From Verrucomicrobiota bacterium (GTDB taxonomy: Bacteria > Verrucomicrobiota > Verrucomicrobiia > Limisphaerales > AAA164-E04), in assembly GCA_047947115.1 (NCBI GenBank), contig CP170459.1:352001-416000 (forward strand): a stretch of DNA of 64,000 bases, in the 5' to 3' direction. Made by a program: the position numbers and the translations under genes. The notes beneath the pieces are model-generated. The model worked only from the letters and a program-made list of their open reading frames with translations. It did no database searches and was not told where the DNA came from. Below, in pieces: positions 45,706-64,000 of this stretch. The number at the start of each line of letters is the position of its first letter. The stretch's first letter is position 1.

Positions 45706-46205
45706 CCGTTACACAGACTTTTCCCGGTCAAGGTAACAGGAAAAGTTTCTTTTTAGAACAAATTCACCATTTCTCATTTACCTCCTACAGCTTGCATCAG
45801 GTGAGCCAATTCATCCGACACATCTCCCTCAGATTCCACCGTTGCCCTAATTCGCTGAATCAACGACGCACGATATCGCTGCTTCATACGCATGACCCCC
45901 ATTTTGACAGAGGCTTCGGTGATTCCCAATTCCAGCGCCCATTCGGCATACGATCCAGACCCATCACTACCCGACAAGATTCCTTTGAAGGCATTGAAAA
46001 ACTGGTCCTTACCTTCCTTATGATAAACAGCGGACAAGTCGTTTAATGTATCTTCAAGAAGGGTCAGCGCCCATCGACGATCATACAAATCCGACGGGGA
46101 ATTTTGATCGACAGGTTCCAGTGTGTAACGTTCCTCGGCCTGCACGGCGTCCAAGGATAGGATGGCTCGATCCCCGCCGCGCTTCTGCGCTTTTGATCGC
46201 GCATA

Positions 46206-47690
46206 ACAGCCCGTTTAATAAGTGCCAATTTCGAAAAACCGAATGATCCGAATCTCGTCCGGCTTCGATTTCATCAAGCTGCATAATAAAATGGTGGAAA
46301 TCAGTAAAAGGACGGCGGGAGCCATATTTATCGCCCCCTGAGTCATCCATTCGCCAAAAATTATGACAAAAGCAGCCGTCAAAGCGGTAGCGAGGCTCGC
46401 TTCCCAGTTTCTTGGCTTGGCGAGGCCAAAGATTTTCCGCATCAGCAATCCGAGGTTGAATGCTGCGCACTTCAGTGTGTGAATCTTGGTGACATTTTCC
46501 ATTCCCTGGAGCCAGGTTCGACGTCCAGCTCCTGTTTCGCACACATGAGCAAATGTTCGCTCCACAAGTTCGCTTCGTTTTCGACTCAGTCGCTTACCCT
46601 TGACACTCCGAACTCTTCGTCGATTACCACGGAATGCGTGTTCGTAGCTTTCCGGCTTGTCCACCCACTTACGCTTCTTTTGCTTCTTCTCTGGTATGTA
46701 TGTGCGGATACCCCACTGCGTGAGCCGTTCCAACAATGCGTTGCTGTGATATCCCTTGTCCATCACCGCCTCTTCAACGGTCCTTTCTGATTCGATTAAT
46801 TGTAGATTGGCTTCAGCCAAGATGAGGCTCTCAGGCCCCGTGGTTGTATCGCCTTGATCTGCATGTGTGACATGACAAGAAACAATTGCCTCGGTTTCCA
46901 AGTCCACCGAATGTTCAGCCTTATATGCAAGATGTGTGCGCCCATCTTTCATCTTGGTAATGCGGCTGTCCGGATCTGACTTGCTTTGCCATTCTTTGTT
47001 GGAAACTTTCTTCCCCTTGCGCCCTCGGTCGATGCGCTGAATGTCTTCATCACTCGGATTTTCAATGCCTTCTTCTTTGGCCAGTTCACGAAGGTATTCT
47101 TTCCAATCCTCACCCGTCCCTTTGCGCACGATGCTACGCATGGCTGCATTGGCTTCCAGGGTGGTGGCATCAACACCAAGAGTTTTTCCCTTCAAAAGCT
47201 TTTTCTCTTTGAGTTGTTCAAGGACAAAAAGGAAAACCTTGTGAAACACTTCATCGGACAAGCGTTGACGGATAATTGTCATCGATGCGTGAACAGGAGT
47301 TTTCTCTGTCAAACTGATGCCGAGAAATTCACGCAGGCAAAGGCTATCATGACATCTCCATGCGATACCACGTTGACTGTTGAGCCCTTCAAAGTATCCG
47401 ATGAAAATCATCCGGAAATAAATACCGGGCGCAATGCCTGGCCTACCAAAATTCTTGTAAAACGGGGCGCACAACTCTTCGACATAAGCATCAAATCCGC
47501 ACTCATCAAAAACCTGATTGAGTTTGGAATAAAACGGGTGAGCCGGCGTTTTGGGAATCTGATTGGAGGCAATGAACAGTTCTTGCTGTTTCGTTTTCCG
47601 TTTGCCAAGTGCCATGGCAAATACTTTACTTGATCATGTGATCAATCACGAATCTTTTCGTGAAGAATTGTGACTTTTTTAACGGGCTGT
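46206..47690 (-). mobile_element. IS1182/IS5-like insertion sequence
   Basis: Imperfect TIR ACAGCCCGTT(T/A)AA(T/A)AAGT; TA duplication at 46204-46205 and 47691-47692. Confidence 0.9.
46215..47615 (-). CDS. DDE transposase (DUF772 + DDE, IS1182/IS5-like)
   Basis: GRPGIAP, VDATTLEANA, DPDSR, MDKGY, VERTFAH. Confidence 0.92.
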   Translation of the reverse strand: MALGKRKTKQQELFIASNQIPKTPAHPFYSKLNQVFDECGFDAYVEELCAPFYKNFGRPGIAPGIYFRMIFIGYFEGLNSQRGIAWRCHDSLCLREFLGISLTEKTPVHASMTIIRQRLSDEVFHKVFLFVLEQLKEKKLLKGKTLGVDATTLEANAAMRSIVRKGTGEDWKEYLRELAKEEGIENPSDEDIQRIDRGRKGKKVSNKEWQSKSDPDSRITKMKDGRTHLAYKAEHSVDLETEAIVSCHVTHADQGDTTTGPESLILAEANLQLIESERTVEEAVMDKGYHSNALLERLTQWGIRTYIPEKKQKKRKWVDKPESYEHAFRGNRRRVRSVKGKRLSRKRSELVERTFAHVCETGAGRRTWLQGMENVTKIHTLKCAAFNLGLLMRKIFGLAKPRNWEASLATALTAAFVIIFGEWMTQGAINMAPAVLLLISTILLCSLMKSKPDEIRIIRFFEIGTY

Positions 47691-49721: not shown

Positions 49722-51410
49722 GTGCCTGAGAGAAAACTCCTCAGTTTTTGAAAATTTCACTGACCGCTGGCGATTCTTGCGGGCGGAAGTCGGAGACACA
49801 CGCCTTGAAGTGCGTGTTTTCCTCCGGAACACATCAAACTATCGTTTTTTTGCCTTTTTTGATCTGAAGATGTACACACCACTTGTGTGATAGGTCTGCT
49901 TGTTAGTGAAAATCTATACCGAGCTTAAGCCGCGTTGGCTTTTTGCTCCGCAGCTTGCCGTTGTTTCTCTATCAAGGCTCACCCGATACGATGCAAATTG
50001 TAAGCCAGCACCCCAAACCCAACATATCGTTTGTACCCTGATAGCCCTTTGTCTGGGCATCGGTTCAGTCCGTGATGCTCCAGTTCATTGATGTTGCTTT
50101 CAATGGCTGCATGTCGTCGCTTGAGTCTTTTAAAGGAGCTGCTGGTTTCACGTTCCTCTTCGACTTTATTGCGTCTTCCTTTTTTGGGCATCACTACCTC
50201 CGGGATCTGCAGCTTCAAATCCTCTAGTTTACTCATGTCACTGAACCCTTTGTCCATGCTCAGCGAATGGATGTTTCCTTCTCCAAAACGATTTACCAGT
50301 CGCAATACCAACGGTTCGAGTTCCTGATTGTCCGTGGTCTTTTCCATGACTTTGTAATCCAATATCAGTCCGTGCTGATCAGTGCTTACTAGGACTTTGT
50401 GTCCCAGTTCAACGGAGGGACGCATCTTGCCCTTGGCGATCCATTCAGTATGGGGTTCGAAGAGCGAAAACACTTTTTCCTCGTGTGGAATAGTCTCTTC
50501 TTTCACGATTCGGCGTTCAACCAAATCAATATGCTTCTCAAGCATTAAGGCAAAATAGCGGATTTTTTCGAGGCAGAGAAAGTGCGTTGGATCCTGGCAG
50601 ACTTTATCCACTCGCCCAATATCTTCAGAGACTTTTGCTCCAAGTTCCTTTGCTTTGCGAAGGTAATTTTTCGCGGCTTTTTCCTGACGCTGATGTCGAT
50701 TCTTGCCACCGCGACTAGACTGCTGAAGCTGGCGCATCAAGCCCTTGATGGTTGTTTTCCAATTTTTGGCTTTACGCCATCCCTCAAGGCCAACCTCCCG
50801 GGCAAGCCAACTCAGTAAGTCGATGCTTTTGCGTGCCGCATCCCACAACAGATTAATATCGGTTGGAAAGTGCACATTGGTCTCAAGAACGTAGCTATCG
50901 GTTTTAACGAGGATTTTTTCGGCGACGTTTTTTTTAGTTCCTTGCGTCCGTGCAAAACCACGATTTCATTGATTTGCCCCAGAAGTTGCTCGTCCACATG
51001 ACAAACATTTTCACTGAGAGTTTTGTGGTGAAAATTTTCCCCACCGGAGGCCACAACGGGCAATCCCATAATCTGTCGCACCAATGAATGGTGATTGGCC
51101 ATATCCTCAAGCCGGTCATAGTCGCAATCCAAAGACATTCGACACACACCCAAAACCAGAATTTGCCACAAATCCATTCCGGGGCGACCGGTGTGCTTCT
51201 TGTTTCCGATTACCTTTTGTTCCAGCAATTCGAAAACCTGTTCGTTGATTTCAGGTGTTGAAAAGATCCACTGCAGAGTGATTTTTACGACGAATATCAG
51301 AGAGAAAATCTCATTTTTCAACAATTTGAATGACAACGTTCCGGGATTCGTTCTCAGAAAACTTCGGAATCCCTTTGCAGACTTGATCATTCTAGTTTTC
51401 AGTCAGGCAC
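49722..51410 (-). mobile_element. IS5-like/ISNCY insertion sequence
   Basis: TIR GTGCCTGAnnGAAAACT at both ends, flanked by TA (49720-49721, 51411-51412). Confidence 0.88.
49925..51390 (-). pseudogene. IS5-like transposase in two frames, with a probable premature stop
   Basis: ORF1 (GRPGMDLWQILVLG) and ORF2 (HFPTD, SLFEPH, DKGF, IESNINELEHHGL) join across an A8 run at 50928-50935; TGA at 49979-49981 precedes 17 more sense codons. Confidence 0.8.
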
Positions 51411-51589: not shown

Positions 51590-53539
51590 TCATGACTGAC
51601 CCGAAAAAGACAAGGATTCTTCCAGCCAACGGTCAGCTCGAAGCACGGCCAAACGCTGTTTGTAGGCTCGCCTTTCTGAAATCCACTGCGCAAAATTAAC
51701 CATCCATGGGCGTGGCAACAAGCTACTGAGAGCTGTCATCGGGTATGATTTTTCGCTTCCCTTGAGTGCTCTGACGATGATTTCATCCTCCATGGAAGCA
51801 AACATGCGAGCTGTTCCGGGATCGCCTTGACGTCCGCAGCGTCCGAATAATTGACGATCCACACGACCTGTTTCGTGAGGTTCGGTTGCGATCACATGCA
51901 GTCCTCCAAGAGCGGAAACATCCGGATCCAGCTTGATATCCGTCCCTCTACCAGCCATGTTTGTAGCCACCGTTATCCGGCCTTTTTCCCCCGCTCGAGC
52001 CACAATCATGGCTTCCTCAGAGAGTCGGGTCGCATTCAAAATCTGATATCTCAACCCTGCTTCATCAAGCATTTCACCAATCTTTTCACTGACATGCACG
52101 TTGCGTGTTCCGATCAAAATAGGGCGTCCCTGATGGTGGACAGCTTTGATTTCCTCCATGACCGCATGCCATTTGGAAGCCTCATCAGTCGTAATGACTC
52201 GTTGATGTTGCCTACGTATACAAGGTTTGTTCGAAGGCAGACACACCACCGGCAATTGGTAAATGCGCCACAATTCACGGGCTGATTCCCTGGCCGTACC
52301 TGTCATTCCGGACAATTTGGTGAAACATCGAAAAAATCTCTGAAAACTCATGCGGGCAACTGTTTCGCTGGGATCTGAGGGTTTGAGCCCCTCTTTCACC
52401 TCTATGGCCTGATGCAATCCCTGTCGCCAACTGCGTTGGGGCATTGGACGGCCGGTAAACTCGTCCACAATCACAACTTTACCATCCTGAACAATATATT
52501 GCTTCCCTTTCAGGAAAAACACCCGCCCCACCAGGGCTTGCCGCAGCAATTCTTCACGTCGAGCCTCGCTTTTCCAGATGCCGGGCCAATCATGAGAGAG
52601 CGATTCGATTTTCTGGCGACCGGCTTCGGTGAAATAAATCTCTTTGTAGGTGGACTGAACCGTGTAGTGGTCTCTCTCCGACAATTGACGCACAAGCGCG
52701 TCCGCGTGATAAATCGCTTTTTTCAGGGATTCGTTCGGTCTTGGACTGGATATGATGAGCGGAGTAACGGCCTCATCGATCAAGATACTATCAGCCTCAT
52801 CGACCACAGCCGTATGAATTCCCCTCAACACACCTCGCTGATTCCCCTGCATGCAGGATTGCGTCATTTGCTTCAGGATTCGACGTGATCGGGTGGCTGA
52901 GTCGCGATTTTTCATTTGATCCCGTAGTAAATCCGCCAAAAGTTCCCGACTGGTCGTGTAGGTCACATCGCAGCGATGAGCATCACGACGTTCCTCTTCG
53001 GAAGCCCCTCCCACTACCTTTCCAACCCGAATACGACAAAACTCGTAAAACGGCTCCAACCAGCTGGCATCACGCGCAACCAGGTAGTCATTCACGGTCA
53101 TCACATGAAAAGGCTTGCGGGTCCACCCGATCAGTACGGCAGCCAAACCGGCAGTCAATGTTTTGCCTTCACCGGTTGCCATTTCCACAAGATGTCCGCG
53201 GTTCAGCGCAAGTGCGCCGGCCAACTGTACGACAAAAGCCTTTAATCCAACCGTCCGAAACGCAGCCTCTCGAACGGCTGCAAGAGCCTCTAATTCAGCA
53301 TCATGCTTTGGTCTGCGGAGAAAAACAGAGCGAAATTCAAGTAAAGCCGCCCTCAGTTCATGGTCATTCATCACCTCAAACCTCGGAGCAAGCGCATCAA
53401 CCGCCTCGGCATCTTGGAGCAATTGTCGCCCAATGGCCGAACGGCGCTGATATGCACCCATCCACCCATGCATGACCGAATCCAACCCCCGATACATGGG
53501 GCGTGGCTTTGGAACCTGATAAAACTGATCGGATGCCAT
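51590..53539 (-). CDS. SecA paralog (SecA DEAD ATPase, C-terminally shortened)
   Basis: EMATGEGKT, TVNDYL, VDEADSILIDEA, DEFTGR, GMTGTA, TNMAGRGTDI, QLFGRCGRQGDPG; 649 aa from ATG 53539. Confidence 0.93.
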   Translation of the reverse strand: MASDQFYQVPKPRPMYRGLDSVMHGWMGAYQRRSAIGRQLLQDAEAVDALAPRFEVMNDHELRAALLEFRSVFLRRPKHDAELEALAAVREAAFRTVGLKAFVVQLAGALALNRGHLVEMATGEGKTLTAGLAAVLIGWTRKPFHVMTVNDYLVARDASWLEPFYEFCRIRVGKVVGGASEEERRDAHRCDVTYTTSRELLADLLRDQMKNRDSATRSRRILKQMTQSCMQGNQRGVLRGIHTAVVDEADSILIDEAVTPLIISSPRPNESLKKAIYHADALVRQLSERDHYTVQSTYKEIYFTEAGRQKIESLSHDWPGIWKSEARREELLRQALVGRVFFLKGKQYIVQDGKVVIVDEFTGRPMPQRSWRQGLHQAIEVKEGLKPSDPSETVARMSFQRFFRCFTKLSGMTGTARESARELWRIYQLPVVCLPSNKPCIRRQHQRVITTDEASKWHAVMEEIKAVHHQGRPILIGTRNVHVSEKIGEMLDEAGLRYQILNATRLSEEAMIVARAGEKGRITVATNMAGRGTDIKLDPDVSALGGLHVIATEPHETGRVDRQLFGRCGRQGDPGTARMFASMEDEIIVRALKGSEKSYPMTALSSLLPRPWMVNFAQWISERRAYKQRLAVLRADRWLEESLSFSGQS

Positions 53540-53574
53540 GGTTGAGTGACCGAAATTCAACCGCAAGAAAACGG

Positions 53575-55731
53575 TTACAATTGATACCTTCGCTGGAGTA
53601 ATTGTCTCAATCTCCTGATCCAACACGGCAGGAGAGGCTCGGCTTTTAAGTCAAATCGAATCTTCCCGGATCGACCGTGCAGAAGATGAGCATCACCGGA
53701 ACTTCCCAGTTTGGAGCGCACTTCAAAGAACGGCTCTGCGGTGGTGGCCCCCTGCTCGTCTTCCTGGGTTACCGGAATATCCCCTCCTCCACTCCAGCCA
53801 AGAGCACGTGAAGGCAATTGACGTTTTTCAACCGGAATGATGTCCATCGAGGTCACTTCAATTCCCGCCTCCGCCATACCAAAAAGTCGCACCTCTGAAG
53901 AACCGATTTCGTTGGCAAACAAACGATCCACATCATCCTGCAGCACCGGCGAAATAAACTCAAATCCACCGGGGTGAATCACTCGTCCAAGCGAACTCCC
54001 CCGCACCAGCCAACGCCCGATGACCTGCTCGACTTCCGGAGCCACCCAAATCCCGTCAATGGGTGATTTCATGATCAAATCTTCCTGCCGTTGCTTGAGG
54101 ACCAGTATACGTTCTTCGATGGATTGACGTTGGAAGAGGAGAGGTTTCACATCCACACCGTCAAAACTCATGGCCTGCAACAACTGCATTTTAACTTCGG
54201 ACAAGCGGGCCTCGGCCCGACGCATTTCGAGGCTCAGTTCCGGATTTGAAAGCCTCAGCAGAGGGGTTCCGGCCGTGACCTGAGCTCCGGGTTCTACCAG
54301 CACTTCCATTAAGGTGCCTTCGGTTTGGGAAACCAACTCGGCCCAGTTTTCTGCCGCTACCACACCCGATGCCCGAAAGTGATGAGGCAAAGGCACCAGC
54401 TGAAGGAAAATCAGCAGCACCCCGACAAAACCAAGCGTCACTCCGACGGCTCTGGAACGCACACGGTCCAGTTCGGGGCTGGTGAAGAGATAATAGATCC
54501 ACTTACCCAGCGGTGCAACGATCCAGGAAAACAAACAAATCACAGCCATCACGACACCGATCAACAAAAACCGATCCGCTACAAACAGGAGGATTCCGGT
54601 GAAAACAATGATACGATAAATATGACTCAATATCCCAAAAGTAACCAAAATCGTCTTTTCGGACTTCTTGTCGGTAGGGCTTTTCGAAGTTGCCACACCA
54701 TATGCATGGCGTTTGACCACGTGTTTCAGCTGTCCTGCCGAATGCTGATGCAAATTGGGATAATTCAGCAAATCACAGAGAATGTAATAACCATCAAAAC
54801 GAAGCAACGGATTCAAATTGAACAACAATGTGGAGACCGAGGCGATAAACATCATGTTGTAGGCCAGGTTGTGCACCAGTCCGGCCCCGGTGTTGGCCCA
54901 GACAAAAGTCGCCAAAGCGGCCACAAACACTTCAACAATCATCCCCGCCAATCCAACCAAAGCCCTTTTCCACCGACTGCTGAATCCCCAGCTGGAAGTC
55001 GCATCCACGTAAGGTATGGGGGTGAAAATCATGAGCATGACACCCATCACATGGACTTCACCTCCGAACTTTCGACAAAAGAAGGCATGACCAAATTCAT
55101 GGAGCGTCTTCAAAATGACCAGGCCAGCATAAAGCCAAACAAGGTTGCCGGGAGCCAACAGGGCCTGAGATTCGTCCTTGAGCGCCGGAAAATAATCCAG
55201 CACAACTTTCAACGCTCCCCCTACCGTCAACAGCCAGATCAAAAACCCAAAGGGACTGATCAAAGGTCCGACGATGGGAAGCATCCGCTTCAAGAAGCGA
55301 TCCGGATCCAGCAGCGGAAATCGAATAAACATCAGGTTGAGAAACTTGGATCGGATCTCACGCTGCCGGCGCTGTTGGAAACGACGGAACAATTCCGCGC
55401 TGTCCTCCGGATTCTCATAGTGCAGCAAACCCACCTGGTACAACTGTGCCAGCAAGCGAATGACCGCATCCTGACTTGGAGCTTCATCCGGATTGGTTTC
55501 CAGAGACTCTTCCCACACCTGCTCCACCGTCTTGTCGGGACGCAAGCGGGCGATGAATTCGTAGGCCTGGGGGCGCAGCCGGAAGTACTGGTTGCTCACC
55601 GGATTCTCCAGCACATACCACCGCTCGCCCCGGTGATACTGACGACGCACCCTCACGCTCGAACGCAGATAAATGCGTTGATTCGCGACGCGATGCCAGG
55701 ATTCGCTGAATGTCTGCTGATTATCCGCCAT
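53575..55731 (-). CDS. M50-family site-2 metallopeptidase fused to an N-terminal PqqD/RRE-like domain and a C-terminal HlyD-like domain
   Basis: HEFGH, NLNPLLRFDGY, multiple TM helices; C-terminal EPGAQVTAGTPLLRL...SPIDG hairpin module. Confidence 0.88.
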   Translation of the reverse strand: MADNQQTFSESWHRVANQRIYLRSSVRVRRQYHRGERWYVLENPVSNQYFRLRPQAYEFIARLRPDKTVEQVWEESLETNPDEAPSQDAVIRLLAQLYQVGLLHYENPEDSAELFRRFQQRRQREIRSKFLNLMFIRFPLLDPDRFLKRMLPIVGPLISPFGFLIWLLTVGGALKVVLDYFPALKDESQALLAPGNLVWLYAGLVILKTLHEFGHAFFCRKFGGEVHVMGVMLMIFTPIPYVDATSSWGFSSRWKRALVGLAGMIVEVFVAALATFVWANTGAGLVHNLAYNMMFIASVSTLLFNLNPLLRFDGYYILCDLLNYPNLHQHSAGQLKHVVKRHAYGVATSKSPTDKKSEKTILVTFGILSHIYRIIVFTGILLFVADRFLLIGVVMAVICLFSWIVAPLGKWIYYLFTSPELDRVRSRAVGVTLGFVGVLLIFLQLVPLPHHFRASGVVAAENWAELVSQTEGTLMEVLVEPGAQVTAGTPLLRLSNPELSLEMRRAEARLSEVKMQLLQAMSFDGVDVKPLLFQRQSIEERILVLKQRQEDLIMKSPIDGIWVAPEVEQVIGRWLVRGSSLGRVIHPGGFEFISPVLQDDVDRLFANEIGSSEVRLFGMAEAGIEVTSMDIIPVEKRQLPSRALGWSGGGDIPVTQEDEQGATTAEPFFEVRSKLGSSGDAHLLHGRSGKIRFDLKAEPLLPCWIRRLRQLLQRRYQL

Positions 55732-55734
55732 GAT

Positions 55735-57627
55735 TTACCACCAGAAAAACATTCTCAGGAAATCCACCGTGCGATGGGTGAATATGTAGAACAAGCTACG
55801 CTTTCCTGCATTGAGTTTTGCCACTCCGCTCATACCTGGACGGAACCAGGATTCCGGGTTTTCAAGAAAGGCCGTACGGATCAGAAAAACATTCTCGCTG
55901 GTTTTGGTGACCGCCGAAGGCTCCACCCGGTCGATTGAAATCGGAAATTTCTTCTTGGGCTGACTGACAAATGCAATCTCTCCATCGACCGCCCCCAGCA
56001 CATCATCGATATCGCGTTCATTGGCTTCGGCTTCCACATAGAGACGATCAATGCGGGCAATGCGAAAGAGCACTTCGCCTTCCCGAACCGGAGCCCCAAG
56101 CCGCTCCTTCAAATCACCTTCCACCATGATACCGTCTATCGGCGACTTCAAGGTGGCCTGACTGATTCGCCACTGAACCAGTTCCAGCCTGGCCTGGTTC
56201 TGCTCCACGAGAGCTTCCGAAATCCGCATATCCGCCAGTTGGCGGGCGGCTCGGGCTTTTTCAGCCTCACGCTTGAAACGGTTCAAGTCGGCGATGATGG
56301 AGGACTGCTCCAACTCCAGATCATCCGTATCCAGTTTCAGAAGGGCATCCCCCTGATTCACCGGGTCTCCGGCTTCTTTGAAAACTTCCTCGATATAACT
56401 GTCAAAGGGAACGGATTGATAAAAAACCTCGTCGCTCTTCAGGATGAAATTAGCTTCCACACGGTATGGCACCCGAATCAAAATCATCGCCAGGAGACCG
56501 AGAAGAATCAAAATACCGATCAATTTGGAAAGGGTATGCTCCGGCCCGAAAAACTTGGCTCCGAAATCCCGAATTCCATCCTTCATCCGTGCGCCAAACC
56601 AACGGTCCTTGTATTTCAGATCCTGCAAACGATAGCTCAACAGGTCGCAAGGCAATTGAATCTGTTGGACCTCGGTTTCTGCAAATGTGCCAGCCATGCG
56701 CTCCAAAGTGATCACCCCGACCACATCATCCCCTTTGTGCAAGGGAATGGAACAAATGTGTTTGAGATCCTCGGATTTCTGGTACTGAGCATGATCTCTG
56801 GTCAACGGTCCTCCATCCTGTTCGGAGGGAAACACAATGATCTCATTCTGGTCCAGCGCTTCTTCCATGGCGGCTTCCAACAATTGGATGGCTTCCATCT
56901 TTCGATCGAAACGCTCTGTATGACTCATTGCCTGCAAGCGAATACCATCACCCTCCACCCAACCAAGGCTCACCCGTTCACATTGGTGTTTGCCAGCCAT
57001 GGCGTTGCAGAATGCAATCGCAGAAGAGAGAAAAGCCTGTTCGGGAGAAACCTGCGCGACCAGATCCAAAACGCTCGCAATCTTTTGAACGTCGTCCCGG
57101 GCACGGGATGCAGACTGGCGAAGAAGCAGTTGGTTGGGCAATTCGGCCACCAACAACTGTCGCAGCAGCGTATCCCTTGCCTTGGATTCATTGCTACCCT
57201 CTAAAAGACTCACCACCACAAAAGTGTCCCGACTCGCTTTGAGCGGAAGGGAAATGGCCAGAGTAAACTCGGTTGCTCCTGGGGCGTCCGCATCTGCGGA
57301 GAGTGGGCGACACACAACGCCCTCTTTTGTGCAATAATCTGCGGCGCCAGGAACTTGACCGCGGAAAAGGGCCTTGTGCTGATTGTTGGCGTCCGAAGCT
57401 TCCCACTGCGAAAGGCGCTTCCAATTCCCATCACCAGTGGTGGATTTGACCGCCACCATCACCACAGAAGCATGGGAAATGCGACCGATTAAACCCGCAT
57501 AACGCTTCCAAAACTCCACCAGATTGCCCTGCCAGTTGGCGAGAGCTTCCAGTTCCTTGGGTATGCGCTCGAAGAAATCCCCTTCGGGCATGGGTGCCCC
57601 GGAATTGACTTGATCCTCGTCTGCCAC
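55735..57627 (-). CDS. GAF-domain HlyD-family membrane fusion protein
   Basis: CERVSLG, MEEALDQ, SIPL...GVITLER (GAF-like); TM helix; GDPVNQGDALLKL, SPIDGIMVEGD, RPGMSG. Confidence 0.85.
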   Translation of the reverse strand: MADEDQVNSGAPMPEGDFFERIPKELEALANWQGNLVEFWKRYAGLIGRISHASVVMVAVKSTTGDGNWKRLSQWEASDANNQHKALFRGQVPGAADYCTKEGVVCRPLSADADAPGATEFTLAISLPLKASRDTFVVVSLLEGSNESKARDTLLRQLLVAELPNQLLLRQSASRARDDVQKIASVLDLVAQVSPEQAFLSSAIAFCNAMAGKHQCERVSLGWVEGDGIRLQAMSHTERFDRKMEAIQLLEAAMEEALDQNEIIVFPSEQDGGPLTRDHAQYQKSEDLKHICSIPLHKGDDVVGVITLERMAGTFAETEVQQIQLPCDLLSYRLQDLKYKDRWFGARMKDGIRDFGAKFFGPEHTLSKLIGILILLGLLAMILIRVPYRVEANFILKSDEVFYQSVPFDSYIEEVFKEAGDPVNQGDALLKLDTDDLELEQSSIIADLNRFKREAEKARAARQLADMRISEALVEQNQARLELVQWRISQATLKSPIDGIMVEGDLKERLGAPVREGEVLFRIARIDRLYVEAEANERDIDDVLGAVDGEIAFVSQPKKKFPISIDRVEPSAVTKTSENVFLIRTAFLENPESWFRPGMSGVAKLNAGKRSLFYIFTHRTVDFLRMFFWW

Positions 57628-57639
57628 AGAAAACCTTCC

Positions 57640-58404
57640 TTAATTGATTTGAACCAAGGCCATCACACCCGGTCTGATTTGTCGTTCCGGATTGTCGATG
57701 ACGACTTTGATACGTAACAACCCACTGGCTGCATCCACTACGGGGGAGATAAAAGTGATCTCACCCGTGACCACTTTATCGAGGTCCTTAAAGGCTCCCT
57801 TGATGGGGAGTTTCTGTCCCTTCTGCAAGTGACCGGCAACATCAAACGGCAAATTGCACACGAACAGAATGCGACTCGTATCCACCAGGCGAATCAAAGG
57901 ATTCCCAACCTTGGTACCTTCCCCGACTTCGTGCTCGAGAAAATCCGCAATCACACCGGAAAACGGGGCAATGACCTGTCTGTCCTTCAGCCTCGCCTGA
58001 GCCAGCTCAAAATCCGCTTTGGCAATCAGGTAATTACCCTCCGCCGTTTCCAACCGTTCAGCACTGACTGAACTGGTTTTTTCAGTGAGCTGTTTGAGAC
58101 GGGCCCATTCCTTCTCGGAAAGATTCATCGCAACCTTTCGACGCTCGACATCCAGGCGCTCAATTTCAGTGGAAAGCTCTACAATCACCTGACCTTTATC
58201 AACTGCATCGCCTTCGTCGAAATAACGGCCGCCAATGACGCCATCATTCGGTGCACCCAAGGTGGAATCCAGAACCGGGTGGGTAATTCCCTCAAACCAT
58301 CCATCCGTTTGAGCCTGTGTGTAAATGCAACTTGCAACCATCAACCAAGCGCCCAAAAGGATGCATGGATGCATGGTTTGCGTAAATGTCCTGCAGTTTT
58401 TCAT
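57640..58404 (-). CDS. Efflux/T1SS periplasmic adaptor (membrane fusion protein)
   Basis: EGDAVDKGQVI, coiled coil, APFSGVI, ISPVVDAASG, IRPGV; start uncertain (ORF open to 58470). Confidence 0.88.
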   Translation of the reverse strand: MKNCRTFTQTMHPCILLGAWLMVASCIYTQAQTDGWFEGITHPVLDSTLGAPNDGVIGGRYFDEGDAVDKGQVIVELSTEIERLDVERRKVAMNLSEKEWARLKQLTEKTSSVSAERLETAEGNYLIAKADFELAQARLKDRQVIAPFSGVIADFLEHEVGEGTKVGNPLIRLVDTSRILFVCNLPFDVAGHLQKGQKLPIKGAFKDLDKVVTGEITFISPVVDAASGLLRIKVVIDNPERQIRPGVMALVQIN

Positions 58405-58470
58405 GTCAAAAATACTCGAATACAATTGGAGCAATCCCATTTCACCTTGGATAAAGCATGCACCCGGCAA

Positions 58471-60168
58471 TCAAGGTTCCTTCGTGGTGGCGCCCAGACG
58501 ATAATAACGGCTCAGGTTCATGCGGTATTTCTGGAACGTGGCGGCATCGATGCCGCTGGCCTCCACCAGAGATCGTGTCTGCTCCGCCAACAATTCCCGA
58601 CTCAATTCCACATTACGCTCCTTAAGGACCGTTCCGGACAAAATCTGCAGCTGAAGCACTGCGCGACGGAACAGCACCTTGGCCATCAGGGATTGGATTT
58701 TAGCTTCCAACAGATCTTCTTCCGTTTCCAACACCTGCTGATTATCCACCGTCCCCACTTCCAAGCGTTCAAGCTGGGTCTTCAACAAATTGTCGTAAAA
58801 GCCGACCACTTTGTCATGGTTGCCCACACTGGAATGGGTGCTTTTCAAATTGTGCAGGGCAGCCTTGATGCCGTTGGACAATTCGGTTTCCATGGATTTC
58901 AACCCCAACTCGGCCTGCTGGACTTCCAACTTAACCGCTTTCAACTCATTCTTGACCCGGCCCCCGCCATCGAGCGGGACACGTAATTCCACACCAACCG
59001 ACCAGGTAACAAAATCACTATTGCTCACGTCGTCGAAGGAATTACCCGCCGAGTCACCCAGACCGTTGTAACCATAATCACCCGTGAGATTTAAATCAGG
59101 TAGACGTTGATTTTTCGCATACTTGAGCCTTACTCGTTGTTTGATGATTTCCCTCTGTTGAGCAAGCAGATCGGGATTCCATTTGTCGGCCTCATACCGG
59201 GCGGCAACAAATGAATAATTTTCAATGCCACTCAACGTGGGACTGTCCACAGAAACCACTCTCTGGTCACTGTTCTCCTGATCATTGGCACTCAGGCTAA
59301 GCAATCGGTTCATGTTTTCGATCACCGCCTGCTCAGCGTCCAACAACTGCGCCTGCCGTTGAGCCAGAGCCGATTCCACCTCCAACACATCGAGAGGTGA
59401 TGCTGATCCGACATTTTGTTTGACCTTGGTGTCATCCAACAAATTTTGAGTGACGGACACACTTTCCGAGAGAAACTGAACCCGCTGCTGTGCGTAATAT
59501 AGATCCCAATAAAGCGTTTCCGCCTGGGTGATCACACGCATGAGTTCGCGGCGATACCCCTGAAAGGCAATGTGCGAATCCTGAGCGGCTATCCGTAAAG
59601 GTGTCATCTCAGCACCCCACGCATTTTTCAGCAAGGGTTGGACCAGAGAAAGCCCGGTGAAGGTCACGAATTCAGCGCCAGGAGGTCGTGTCGTGCCAAA
59701 TATGGAAGAAGATCCTTGCAGATTGTTCTTCAAACGACTGACCGAATACCCCAGCCGCACACGTCCGCCGCCAGGAATAAGAGATTCGATGCCACTGGAA
59801 TACAGGTGGCTTTGCTGATCAAATTCCGCCAAACCGGACAACTGCCGTTCTTGCTGAACCGTATTGGGACGGTCCAAATCCTGATATTGTCCATTGAGAA
59901 CCAGCTCGGGATTGTAAAGCGTGCGTTCGGCATCCAGTCGGCGAAGGCCCACTTCGGTCTGCAAAACAGAAATCTGGATCCGATCGTTCTGATCCAACAC
60001 ACGTTGCAGGTAATCCTCCAAAGTGAGTTCCACAACCGGCTCCGAAGATTCAGCGGCATGCAAGCCAAGGGCAACCCCCATACAAGTCACAGCCAAAAAC
60101 CTAGCTACTCCACATATTTTCCGACCACCGACACGCTGCACGGTCTCCTCTTCCATAAAGGCTTTCAT
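58471..60168 (-). CDS. TolC-family outer membrane channel
   Basis: LTLEDYLQRVL, LVQPLLK, YWDLYYA, RLPDLNL, WSVGVELRVPL; two OEP-like repeats. Confidence 0.92.
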   Translation of the reverse strand: MKAFMEEETVQRVGGRKICGVARFLAVTCMGVALGLHAAESSEPVVELTLEDYLQRVLDQNDRIQISVLQTEVGLRRLDAERTLYNPELVLNGQYQDLDRPNTVQQERQLSGLAEFDQQSHLYSSGIESLIPGGGRVRLGYSVSRLKNNLQGSSSIFGTTRPPGAEFVTFTGLSLVQPLLKNAWGAEMTPLRIAAQDSHIAFQGYRRELMRVITQAETLYWDLYYAQQRVQFLSESVSVTQNLLDDTKVKQNVGSASPLDVLEVESALAQRQAQLLDAEQAVIENMNRLLSLSANDQENSDQRVVSVDSPTLSGIENYSFVAARYEADKWNPDLLAQQREIIKQRVRLKYAKNQRLPDLNLTGDYGYNGLGDSAGNSFDDVSNSDFVTWSVGVELRVPLDGGGRVKNELKAVKLEVQQAELGLKSMETELSNGIKAALHNLKSTHSSVGNHDKVVGFYDNLLKTQLERLEVGTVDNQQVLETEEDLLEAKIQSLMAKVLFRRAVLQLQILSGTVLKERNVELSRELLAEQTRSLVEASGIDAATFQKYRMNLSRYYRLGATTKEP

Positions 60169-60513: not shown

Positions 60514-62004
60514 ATGATGGATAAATTACTGGTCATTGATGATGAAACGGATGTGAGATATGCGTTCAGGCGCCTCTTCGATTCTCCCGGAATCGAACTA
60601 CGCCTTGCATCCAGTGGAGAAGAGGGATTGCGTGTTCTGAAAGAGTTTCATCCGAACCTGATCGTGATGGATATCCGGATGGAAGGCATGAGTGGTCTGC
60701 AAACACTCCAAGCCATCCGGCAATTCGACACCAAAACCCCGGTCATTCTCATGACTGCCTACGGCGCCACCCAAACAGCCATCGAAGCCATGAAACTGGG
60801 CGCGTATGATTATGTCCTGAAGCCATTTGATGTCCCCAAGCTCCAGAAGCTGATCTACGAAGCCCTCAAGGCCTCGCAGGACATGTCCAAACCCGTTTCC
60901 TTCGAAACCAAGGCGGAATCACTGGACGATGAACTGGGCATGATTGGACGCAGTGAACCGATGCAGCAGGTGTTCAAACTGATTGGACAACTGGCCAATT
61001 CGGACGCCACGGTTTTAATCACCGGCGAAAGCGGAACCGGCAAAGAACTCGTCGCCCGTGCCATTTATCAAAACAGCGCCCGCGCACCACGCTCCTACCT
61101 TGCGATAAATTGCGCGGCCATTCCTGAGAACCTTTTGGAAAGCGAACTGTTTGGCCACGAAAAAGGCAGTTTCACTGGAGCCAACCAAACCCGCATCGGC
61201 AAATTTGAACAATGCCATCAAGGCACCTTGTTTCTTGATGAAATTGGCGACATGTCCTTGCCGACCCAAACCAAAATGCTGCGCGTTCTCCAATCAGGAA
61301 CCTTCGAACGACTCGGCAGCAACAAGCCCGTGGAAGTGGACGTAAGGGTCATCGCTGCCACCAACCAACCACTGGAAGAAGCGGTGGCCGACAGAAAATT
61401 TCGAGAGGATCTTTTTTACCGGCTGAACGTCGTGCGAGTCCAACTTCCTCCCTTGCGGGAACGAAGCGAAGACATCCCATTGCTGGTGCAATACTTCCTC
61501 AGGAAATTTTCAAAACTGTTCGGGCAATCCGGAAAATCAATTAATGAAAATGCCCTGGAAGCCTTGAAACAATACCAATGGCCGGGTAACGTGCGCGAGC
61601 TCGAAAATGTGATCCAGCGTGCCTTCGTGGTGACCAAGGGAGAAACTATTCTGCTGAGTGATTTGCCCAAGGAAATCATTGGAGGAAAGAACACTCCCGC
61701 ATCGTCGAATTCCCATTCCAAGGCATCGGCAGACACCGCCTCCTCAACCTCAGATTCAAAAGCTTTATCCGAAGCTACCCGGACAGAGGGCATTGATCAA
61801 CTGACGGACGCCATGTTCCAGTGGGCACGATCCAATCCGGACCAAGCTCTCATACCGACAGTAGAACGAGAACTTGTCAAACAAGCCCTCAAAGAAACCC
61901 GGGGCAATCAGGTCAAAGCATCCACTCTCCTCGGAATCACCCGCGCCACCCTCCGCAAACGCATCGAGAAATTCAATATCCGCCAGGAGATCAATGTGGA
62001 TTAA
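60514..62004 (+). CDS. Sigma-54-dependent response regulator (NtrC/AtoC family)
   Basis: REC domain (IDDE, MDIRM, KPF), GESGTGKE, GSFTGA, FLDEIG, WPGNVREL, Fis-type HTH. Confidence 0.95.
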   Translation: MMDKLLVIDDETDVRYAFRRLFDSPGIELRLASSGEEGLRVLKEFHPNLIVMDIRMEGMSGLQTLQAIRQFDTKTPVILMTAYGATQTAIEAMKLGAYDYVLKPFDVPKLQKLIYEALKASQDMSKPVSFETKAESLDDELGMIGRSEPMQQVFKLIGQLANSDATVLITGESGTGKELVARAIYQNSARAPRSYLAINCAAIPENLLESELFGHEKGSFTGANQTRIGKFEQCHQGTLFLDEIGDMSLPTQTKMLRVLQSGTFERLGSNKPVEVDVRVIAATNQPLEEAVADRKFREDLFYRLNVVRVQLPPLRERSEDIPLLVQYFLRKFSKLFGQSGKSINENALEALKQYQWPGNVRELENVIQRAFVVTKGETILLSDLPKEIIGGKNTPASSNSHSKASADTASSTSDSKALSEATRTEGIDQLTDAMFQWARSNPDQALIPTVERELVKQALKETRGNQVKASTLLGITRATLRKRIEKFNIRQEINVD

Positions 62005-62118: not shown

Positions 62119-64000
62119 CTAGCGAACGGAACGGAAGAATCGCTGAGGATCATCAGCGTTCACTTCAAAGGGAGAAACAGCGCCAGCCACTGTAGTGTAA
62201 GGACCGTCAACCTCACTCGCTGACTGGAGCGTTCCGCTAAATTCAATGCGAATGGTGCCGTCAGCACGTGAAAGACCGATACTGGCAGGCATGGCATCCG
62301 GATTCAACTTGGTCAAGGTCAAGGTAACCACATCGTTGTCGCCCGAACCATAATTCAGGTTGAATGTATGGCCTTGCTCATTCGTGAACGCATTCCCCTG
62401 TGCGAAGGTTCCGGTCAAGGCGGTGTAATCGATCAAAGTCCACATATCCCCTTCTCTGACCGCCCCTGTCAAGGTCACTTTCAGTGTCGCTTGTGGATCA
62501 ATTTCAAGACTCAAACCAGTGGTGTTGGCTCGCAACAAACCGCCCACCTGTTGTCCGTCGATCACATAAGCAAGAGTTCCATTGGCTCCAATAGTGGACA
62601 CGTTGATATCGTTGAAACTGTTGTTCACACCGGTTGGCAACATTTCCAATGTCCCATTGATCAACCGGAAAAATTTATAATTGAACAACTGTCCCGCGAC
62701 GGACACATGACCAGTCCCACCGGATTCATCACCGATCTGAACCACCATACCGCCGCCTTGCGATCGCAACGCCGCGCCTTCGGAAATGTTGATCGTGCCG
62801 TTTCCATCCGGCCCTACCCCAACAAAAAGACCGGCATTATTACCGCTATGAGCTCCGCTGAACGTTCCACCTTTGACATTCAGAACACCTGTGGTGTTGT
62901 CGCCGACAAAAATGCGGGATGGATTATCCGTGATGCTGCTACCAATATCACGAGTTATTTCGGCAACGCCATTCACGATGGCATTACTCCCATCGATCGG
63001 CACACCGTCACTCCAATTGCCTGCCGTGAACCAATCACCTTCGCCCCTGAATACCGAGCCCAATGTCGACAAAGGAGCACTGTCACGAATGGTCAGAGTG
63101 GCGCCACCAAATATGTCGATCTGCAGACTGTTCAAGCCAAGCCCTTGCGCTACATCCGTCCAGTTGGCGACGGTATAGCTGCCGGCAGGAACCGAAACCG
63201 CCGTCCCATCACTTTGCCTGAAATTCAAAGAATGGAACATTGAATCTTCGAACAACACCAAAGTGCTGTTGCCTTGAAGAACGAGCGCACCATCGGGAGC
63301 ATTAACGGTCCCGTTGATTTCAAGATTGGCATCAATCAATTCCAGATCCCCATTCCCCAGGGAACCATTGGAAGCTGCGAACGTTCTGCCCCCTACTAGC
63401 GTCCAGCCCCCGGAAAAGGAGCTGTTGCTACCACTGATGATCAGCGTTTCGTCAGCTTCCAAATCGGTCGGGGAGGCAGTGACCCGAAGGCGGCCCACAC
63501 CGCTTACGCCCGCGTCAAGGGTCAATGCATTAAAGGCGCCCCGAATATCGATCCCACTGTTCCGAAGAACGGTGACACCTCCTTCCAATGTGACAAATCC
63601 TTCATCATCGGTAAAATCAATCACCCCGCCAGAAAGGCGAAAATCATCAATGCGAACAGAATCGGTTGTTCCGTTTTGAATACGAAGCCGAGCTCCACTA
63701 CCGAGCAATTCAAGCGATCCTCCACCAAACACGTCATCAAACTCATCAGGCACGCCTAGAGATGAAGCAATGAAATCGGTGACCAGATAATCTTCCCCGG
63801 ATCGAGGCGCCTGACCATCGGCCCAGGCAGATGCTTCGTCCCATGAAGTGGTGCTGGTGTTCAAAATAATGACACCTTCGGCAACATCCACCAGAACCAG
63901 CAGTGAACGGGTGCTGGTTCCTTCCGCACCTTCCGCCACAAGTGTGTATCCGGCCGACTGGGTGAGTTGCACATCAAGAATGCCTTGCCCGTTTTGCGTG
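62119..64000 (-). CDS. Large secreted beta-helix/autotransporter-passenger-like protein, 5' end outside the window
   Basis: Frame open to the window edge; Gly/Asn/Thr-rich beta repeats, W...NWS.GVP motifs, C-terminal LQSASEVDGPY...FFRSVR domain. Confidence 0.8.
   Translation of the reverse strand, partial: TQNGQGILDVQLTQSAGYTLVAEGAEGTSTRSLLVLVDVAEGVIILNTSTTSWDEASAWADGQAPRSGEDYLVTDFIASSLGVPDEFDDVFGGGSLELLGSGARLRIQNGTTDSVRIDDFRLSGGVIDFTDDEGFVTLEGGVTVLRNSGIDIRGAFNALTLDAGVSGVGRLRVTASPTDLEADETLIISGSNSSFSGGWTLVGGRTFAASNGSLGNGDLELIDANLEINGTVNAPDGALVLQGNSTLVLFEDSMFHSLNFRQSDGTAVSVPAGSYTVANWTDVAQGLGLNSLQIDIFGGATLTIRDSAPLSTLGSVFRGEGDWFTAGNWSDGVPIDGSNAIVNGVAEITRDIGSSITDNPSRIFVGDNTTGVLNVKGGTFSGAHSGNNAGLFVGVGPDGNGTINISEGAALRSQGGGMVVQIGDESGGTGHVSVAGQLFNYKFFRLINGTLEMLPTGVNNSFNDINVSTIGANGTLAYVIDGQQVGGLLRANTTGLSLEIDPQATLKVTLTGAVREGDMWTLIDYTALTGTFAQGNAFTNEQGHTFNLNYGSGDNDVVTLTLTKLNPDAMPASIGLSRADGTIRIEFSGTLQSASEVDGPYTTVAGAVSPFEVNADDPQRFFRSVR

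Follow-up and report, generated by a model that had tools for sequence, protein, structure and literature searches.

The five-gene operon

A 64,000-nucleotide stretch of the genome of a Verrucomicrobiota bacterium (assembly GCA_047947115.1, contig CP170459.1, positions 352,001 to 416,000; hereafter the window, in whose positions coordinates are given unless marked otherwise) carries five tightly packed minus-strand genes for a putative export system. All five open reading frames (ORFs) were found where an earlier reading of the sequence alone, here called the original prediction, had placed them, and Pfam and NCBIfam agree with its assignments. The first encodes a TolC-family outer-membrane channel (58471..60168, 565 aa; PF02321 in two stretches, E 2.9e-49). 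It is followed by a stand-alone periplasmic adaptor of the membrane fusion protein (MFP) type (57640..58470, 276 aa from a TTG; TIGR01730 above cut-off, PF13437/PF16576), in which hydropathy analysis detected no transmembrane segment and whose real start codon probably lies further in, at an ATG that precedes a signal-peptide-like stretch. The third product (55735..57627, 630 aa) combines a GAF domain (PF01590, residues 215-331, a weak match), one transmembrane helix (366-384, by hydropathy) and an MFP module (PF16576, 401-599). The fourth (53575..55731, 718 aa; NF041824), referred to below as the M50 fusion, unites a putative PqqD-like recognition element of the kind found in the biosynthesis of peptides that are made on the ribosome and modified after translation (RiPPs; RiPP recognition element, RRE) with an M50 site-2 zinc protease and an MFP module. 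The fifth (51590..53539, 649 aa) is a secondary SecA with SecA_DEAD, PP_bind and P-loop matches and without SecA_SW. Its ORF extends to 53626; the start is likely better placed at the ATG at 53539, which gives a 649-aa protein identical to P0001 and sits 35 bases past the stop of the M50 fusion. The first four genes are separated by 0, 12 and 3 bases. The cluster holds no ABC or RND transporter gene, just as the original prediction had remarked.

The operon is a real, new copy of a locus described in silico by Kamneva, Poudel and Ward in 2015 (PMC4452313), the publication to which the original prediction had pointed. The published locus, found in the same phyla, pairs a secondary SecA_DEAD protein without SecA_SW, present in addition to canonical SecA, with adjacent M50-HlyD, GAF-HlyD and HlyD genes and sometimes an OEP gene, and contains no ABC gene. 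Its authors proposed that SecA serves as a co-opted ATPase and the M50 protein as the pore, and called the biological role unknown; because this idea already stands there, the same inference in the original prediction is not new. The present analysis adds a likely cargo, its leader, a predicted RRE domain and a SecA-free version, none of which is named in the available text of the 2015 paper, and a literature search found no paper giving the gene set a cargo, an experimental test or a link to the leader. The reading we lean towards, and consider somewhat probable, is that the module is an ABC-free exporter that reads an LExRxLL leader on large surface proteins, with a clade-specific SecA as an added motor.

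Gene presence was scored by tblastn in 64 related loci fetched through the M50 fusion, counting only loci with enough flanking DNA. TolC was present in 43 of the 49 loci informative upstream and the GAF-MFP gene in 57 of 58, while SecA followed the M50 fusion in 52 of the 56 with enough downstream DNA (eight were uninformative; one match was partial). GAF-MFP proteins measure 586-699 aa beside SecA and 446-472 or 659-740 aa in the group of weak M50 matches described below; a tandem GAF duplication was rejected for want of a BLAST signal, and homology between long and short forms gave no BLAST signal either, length alone differing. A promoter scan returned five sites where ten were expected. 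Contigs from two metatranscriptomes cover parts of the operon, which by itself is no proof of transcription. Beyond TolC, and transcribed away from it, lies a sigma-54 response regulator gene (60514-62004), a neighbour that is not conserved in most loci.

The M50 fusion matches the M50 Pfam (22.9 bits) and the PqqD Pfam (PF05402, 18.9 bits) below cut-off in both cases. Its best family match is NF041824, the daptide intramembrane metalloprotease, which spans residues 22-403 (E 4.9e-54) at 184 of 300 bits, i.e. under the family cut-off, and no daptide genes lie nearby. The motifs HEFGH (211-215) and NPxxxxDG (307-314) sit in a multi-pass membrane domain, as judged by hydropathy and alignment. 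Residues H211, E212, H215, N307, P308, D313 and G314 were invariant in 15 of 15 aligned sequences, and across M50 fusions the HExxH motif was kept in 66/66 and the DG motif in 61/66. In a structure model of residues 1-420 (pLDDT 77) the strand and helix order of a PqqD fold is visible; the top match of a fold search with it was the site-2 protease 3b4r (E 3.9e-3, weak), and 5v1v (TbiB1-leader) and 5sxy (PqqD) were returned with probability 1.00 but E 0.04-0.08, the leading matches all being weak (E 0.004-0.15). RRE-M50 proteins without an MFP module (L124, L127, L128, L129) form the nearest outgroup, and their clusters look, by sequence, like YcaO/radical-SAM RiPP loci.

The SecA paralog consists of NBD1, PPXD and NBD2 followed by the beginning of the scaffold helix, and keeps the motifs MATGEGKT (Walker A), DEAD, TNMAGRGTDI and RQGDPG. 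Aligned to the canonical SecA of the same genome, it breaks off some 25 residues into that helix; therefore the helical wing, the two-helix finger and the zinc tail are missing. Finger and wing are the parts that SecA uses to push chains. Its modelled structure (pLDDT 78) resembles that of SecA from B. subtilis (E 1e-50). From this domain make-up, the protein probably hydrolyses ATP and clamps a chain, and probably does not work as in SecA-SecY. The original prediction had treated it as a paralog rather than the only secA of the organism, and a canonical secA of 1030 codons does lie elsewhere in the genome (G000:C1:1991469-1994561). Accessory SecA2 systems (SecA2-only and SecA2/SecY2) likewise place a second, shorter SecA beside large surface-protein genes; unlike them, the present cluster has no secY2 or asp genes and its SecA, which scores below all SecA2 model cut-offs, is devoid of wing and finger. 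A SecA_DEAD domain without the wing has also been reported inside Omnitrophota giants (10.1101/2023.11.21.568195), which has no bearing on the present case. Among 7,982 long candidates, two matches to a natural M50-SecA fusion were rejected: in P0122 the similarity to MFP breaks off at residue 618, as by a frameshift, and P0123 arose when a eukaryotic gene finder joined several bacterial genes. A 1,343-aa SecA frame in L106 was also discarded, being an overlapping high-GC frame. Public annotation names the paralog 'prepilin peptidase' in several cases (P0014, P0052, P0093 and L112 22204-24120), a label that may hide the family in searches.

Putative leader-bearing cargo and SecA-free relatives

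Long ORFs adjoining the module start with F-x-L-E-x-L-E-x-R-x-L-L-S, and thus share an N-terminal LExRxLL core. The original prediction had missed both this leader and the invariance of the M50 catalytic residues. The E and R of the core are invariant in 36 of 36 sequences, which were selected by a pattern requiring both. A leader-bearing ORF occurs in 17 of the 64 loci, and in ten a long ORF lies downstream of SecA on the same strand. NF012209 (LEPR-XLL) was passed by four of six N-termini tested, and the cargo leader is the motif known as LEPR-XLL or Planc_extracel (PF07595), which has been put forward as an export signal (Studholme 2004, cited in PMC8567305) and to which the available text of the citing paper assigns no exporter. 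Its core is charged and, by alignment, short of a Sec h-region, with hydropathy peaks of 1.1-2.1 that are not decisive. Daptides carry a leader motif, ELExMEAP, that is reported to be removed by the RRE-dependent intramembrane peptidase MpaP (10.1101/2023.03.08.531785). The M50 fusion shares with MpaP the HExxH…DG intramembrane protease and, as predicted, an RRE (residues 22-403), and the two leaders are similarly worded (ELExMEAP versus ELEALEPR); unlike MpaP, the protease described here is fused to an MFP module, goes with cargo of 110 to 20,000 residues and has no modification enzymes nearby.

The source genome encodes exactly one leader-bearing protein, of 7,794 aa (G000:C1:2098577-2121961), 1.7 Mb from the operon. 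It contains 28 GGxGxD motifs, no ABC or TolC partner of its own is evident beside it, and it is likely the cargo of the operon. In Methylobacterium extorquens AM1 the locus lies at META1p2399-2402 (PMC4452313), at the edge of an island with the 15,831-aa META1_2412 (PMC2680597). Giant proteins of Chlorobium have N-terminal LEPRxLL domains and are reported to be without known transport signals; the same preprint notes one recently acquired secA, which its available text does not link to the giants (10.64898/2026.03.19.712371). At the other end of the size range, pairs of leader-bearing proteins of only 110-176 aa stand upstream of SecA-free modules in three loci from one genus (L071 2044-2875, L074 2080-2925, L087 17559-18481); these RiPP-precursor-like short cargoes would be suited to biochemistry. 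In three alphaproteobacterial plasmid loci a small DUF3467 protein, absent from the window, is encoded between the giant cargo and GAF-MFP (L110 17753-18094, L112 17726-18046, L113 17681-17977) and is a candidate chaperone.

Distribution was examined in 301 genomes of the phylum that are at least 90% complete, with a paralog threshold of E ≤ 1e-135. NF012209 was found in 23 and the SecA paralog in 24, and the two coincide in 21. Of the three genomes with the paralog alone, one (L089) proved on inspection to have a leader; of the two with the leader alone, one (L093) has its SecA cut by a contig end. A 28-column leader profile, trained on loci near the module, matched 60 of 69 genomes with an M50 fusion versus 7 of 232 without one, and 47 of 56 M50-positive genomes after the 13 that supplied training rows were dropped; no P value is claimed because related genomes are not independent. 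The largest leader-bearing frame has a median of 7,794 aa in 23 paralog genomes versus 3,238 aa in 36 genomes without the paralog, medians in which kin are not independent and frames are cut by contig ends. The link to giant cargo made by the original prediction is supported by the leader-bearing ORFs of the related loci and by these genome counts.

The SecA paralog is confined to part of this distribution. Among the 69 M50 genomes, 25 gave strong and 44 weak matches, and the paralog occurs in 24 of the 25 strong-clade genomes and in none of the 44 in the weak group. Weak-group loci had an adjacent SecA in 0/20 and a leader ORF in 10/20. A single SecA_DEAD gene was found in 9/9 weak-group genomes tested (six of them single-contig) versus two in the control G060, and in 12/12 SecA-free M50-fusion genomes tested overall; such genomes keep the adaptors, the M50 fusion and leader-bearing cargo. 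Because so many relatives with the module carry no extra SecA gene, the paralog is likely an add-on motor of one branch and not the defining power source. Of the SecA-energised, ABC-free exporter originally predicted, the freedom from ABC genes and the giant cargo have therefore stood, whereas SecA as its defining power has not, given the 44 of 69 M50-fusion genomes without the paralog.

Plasmids and the M50 phylogeny add to this pattern. The module is matched by 65 plasmid records, of which eight were opened. No SecA-like gene lies beside it on six (Escherichia coli, Azospirillum, Thalassospira, Cupriavidus, Phyllobacterium and Burkholderia); on the other two, a right-sized and right-placed gene named 'translocase' or 'prepilin peptidase' was taken as the paralog by annotation only. 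Beside SecA-free modules a leader was recognized by eye in four of five complete neighbour N-termini, that of Phyllobacterium being without one, and the leader profile scored three (E 1.6e-5, 3.2e-5 and 0.009) and missed one; LExRxLL-type leaders accompany the SecA-free modules on the Escherichia, Cupriavidus and Burkholderia plasmids. The multi-repeat adhesin system of Pectobacterium may be a further SecA-free member with experimental data, and may then bear on the view that no member has been tested. In an M50 phylogeny of 69 sequences, for which the first 64 loci were thinned to every third one and RRE-M50 proteins of RiPP-like clusters served as root, all SecA-linked loci fall into one clade (support 0.93) among SecA-free lineages, and five members of that clade have no adjacent SecA. 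In a second phylum (121 genomes around G301), 13 genomes match the M50 profile; six encode the complete M50-MFP fusion, and the others an RRE-M50 protein that has no MFP module. Three of the six have an adjacent paralog and three have one SecA only.

Insertion sequences and the rest of the window

Beyond SecA the original prediction had seen an RTX-type remnant, which is indeed present (48096..about 49710, minus strand; PF00353) as the C-terminal part of an RTX-repeat protein. It is separated from SecA by an insertion sequence (IS; about 49843..51276, minus strand) with a frameshifted DDE transposase (PF01609), at the site where many relatives begin a leader-bearing giant gene. A 99.7% copy of the IS lies at G000:C1:737311-738745. 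In the DNA run X9 a single contig bridges the IS and the operon, and the remnant is covered by other contigs; because a contig spans it, the IS-operon junction is not an assembly artefact and the arrangement exists in nature. The remnant has no N-terminus, and the first 41 codons of its ORF match IS-end DNA elsewhere. It shows weak matches to giants in L058, L112 and L120, and is probably left over from a former adjacent cargo. That it might be the tail of the intact 7,794-aa giant was rejected, there being no match between them. The transposase is frameshifted at 50927, where three of four runs have one extra base.

A second IS (46204-47690) splits an ECF sigma-factor gene (48028-47690 and 46154-45774) that precedes a Ser/Thr kinase-WD40 gene; it is polymorphic, since all four runs compared show the join without the IS. 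The first 2,300 positions of the window have low GC (about 30% versus 51%) and a beta-lactamase-fold gene. Many large signal-peptide proteins of the genome, including the product of 62119-64000 and many ORFs of >1,800 aa genome-wide, share a similar C-terminal stretch with an F/Y-F/Y-R motif, possibly a sorting domain separate from the leader system.

Competing explanations and a proposed mechanism

Type I secretion (HlyB/HlyD/TolC), to which giant-adhesin systems such as LapBCE belong, resembles the module in its TolC channel, HlyD-like adaptors and RTX-repeat cargo. The module differs in having no ABC transporter, three different adaptors, a membrane zinc protease and a conserved signal at the N-terminus, whereas canonical type I cargo leaves in one step by way of an uncleaved C-terminal signal. 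The cognate ABC transporter that type I secretion requires is absent at the level of the operon, and a partner in trans is possible. An ABC-ATPase profile built from the source genome and run on 104 loci (64 plus 40) matched 13, and fused exporter-type ABCs were found in 2/104, in keeping with the expectation of the original prediction that such genes are not routine in homologous clusters. Eleven profile-positive proteins were scanned. Three were fused exporters, two of them directly before TolC in L046 and one in L080; the rest were SMC, a sugar importer, PstB, MlaF-like, YbbA/LolD-like and ABC-F proteins and two short ATPases without a strong family. The match in L069 is Wzt, and those in L070 and L085 fell outside the scan. 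A short ABC ATPase stands in a divergent gene run near the module in L097 (19238-19876) and L108 (14913-15542), continuing into TolC and MFP in L108, so that these two loci are exceptions to the absence of a nearby ABC. The source genome also contains four lone fused ABC exporters and a divergent ABC-MFP-OMF triad (G000:C1:4156930-4161562, L136; approximately C1:4.157-4.162 Mb), whose ABC exporter is without a canonical Walker A by pattern and which could export RTX proteins.

We consider it quite improbable that export goes by ordinary type I secretion, with the ABC transporter supplied from another locus and the operon contributing only duct and processing. The RTX repeats of the cargo, the triad, the lone exporters and the ABC genes of L046, L080, L097 and L108 would all suit that explanation. 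The triad, however, has its own adaptor and channel, and because its ABC occurs in 2/301 genomes it is unable to explain a family-wide pattern; the conserved signal is N-terminal, not C-terminal; and no HlyB, PrtD or LssB model reached cut-off in 5/5 module genomes, a weak test in that 0/14 controls passed either. A stronger contender, though still unlikely, is an extension of the original prediction in which the machine is powered by a SecA-type ATPase in every case: loci without the paralog would borrow the housekeeping SecA, and the paralog would be a dedicated, essential replacement in its clade. This would account for the recruitment of a SecA, agrees with the intact ATPase motifs and with the frequency of the paralog (24/25 strong-clade genomes, adjacent in 52/56 loci), and assigns SecA the role proposed by Kamneva et al (PMC4452313). 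It fits less well with the missing finger and wing, with strong-clade loci that have no adjacent paralog (4/56 and the Thalassospira plasmid), and with the outcome for the two M50-SecA 'fusions', a frameshift and a gene-finder artefact.

A two-step route is improbable, only marginally less so than type I secretion: SecYEG would carry the cargo across, the paralog being a SecA2-like targeting factor and M50 a leader peptidase only, and adaptors and TolC would collect from the periplasm. Chlorobium LEPRxLL giants are reported to be periplasmic when the partner is absent (10.64898/2026.03.19.712371), and the paralog clade is described as sister to actinobacterial SecA2 (PMC4452313). Against this stand the charged leader core without a full h-region (hydropathy not being decisive), the loss of SecY-contacting domains from the paralog and the fusion of the protease to an adaptor. 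Least probable of all is that the assembly is no exporter and instead serves signalling or regulated proteolysis, with GAF sensing, M50 cutting and the giants leaving by another route. In its favour, GAF domains and site-2 proteases are typically signalling components, and in M. extorquens the GAF gene alone is described as clearly expressed (PMC4452313); yet TolC is conserved together with the three MFP modules, the related loci have no regulator or anti-sigma factor that regularly accompanies the module, and the distribution tracks large acidic repeat proteins.

The preferred reading, an ABC-free exporter with SecA as an added motor, starts from the gene set, its domain make-up and conserved order, the intact protease and ATPase motifs and the co-occurrence of leader and M50 fusion. 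Several observations weigh against it. Training of the leader profile drew on loci near the module, and 9 of the 69 M50-positive genomes gave no match to it. In the second phylum the profile matched one of six M50-MFP genomes and one genome without an M50 match; three further leaders there were recovered only by eye, on DUF4347 proteins of SecA-free genomes (ALEPRMLYD, QLEERIVLD and RLEERIVMD), and two fragmented M50-MFP genomes gave no leader protein. The intact 7,794-aa cargo is unlinked to the operon, its GGxGxD motifs are typical of ordinary type I cargo, and the separate triad exists in the same genome. Plasmid locus L115 combines a leaderless neighbour with a canonical type I ABC nearby. 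SecA-free genomes also hold leader frames of 9,000-11,500 aa, so that large cargo does not strictly depend on the paralog, and SecA-free versions would need some other source of energy. The scheme would, moreover, require a site-2 protease of four to five helices to serve as a protein channel.

Judged from sequence, the core of the exporter would be TolC, three adaptors and an RRE-gated site-2 protease travelling with LExRxLL-leader proteins. We infer every mechanistic step, from binding and cleavage to export and energy source. By RiPP precedent, the cytoplasmic RRE would bind the leader; the M50 domain would then cut at or just behind it and form or gate the inner-membrane path. As known for MFP and TolC proteins, the three MFP modules would guide the chain, still unfolded, into TolC with its N-terminus leading, and folding of the Ca-binding repeats would take place outside. 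The SecA paralog may dock on the module complex, not on SecYEG, and feed the very largest cargo, the weakest step of the scheme. SecA-free versions would draw on another source of energy, be it the proton force, a folding ratchet or the housekeeping SecA. More tentatively still, the module may represent a separate Gram-negative secretion class descended from RiPP leader processing, in which the place of the ABC transporter is taken by an RRE-gated site-2 protease; this enzyme would read the LEPR-XLL/Planc_extracel leader and send cargo of 110 to 20,000 residues out via TolC with the N-terminus leading. In one branch of that class a finger-less SecA would have been recruited as a motor that drives the largest bacterial proteins independently of SecY.

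Culturable bacteria have both versions, SecA-free in Cupriavidus metallidurans CH34 and SecA-bearing in M. extorquens AM1, and the scheme is directly testable. If true, it would mean that a translocator can be built around a site-2 protease and that a SecA can work without SecY. If the leader link holds, the module would provide an export route for proteins with LEPR-XLL and planctomycete-type leaders, a signal put forward in 2004, and would cover the 20,000-37,000-residue symbiosis proteins of Chlorobium.

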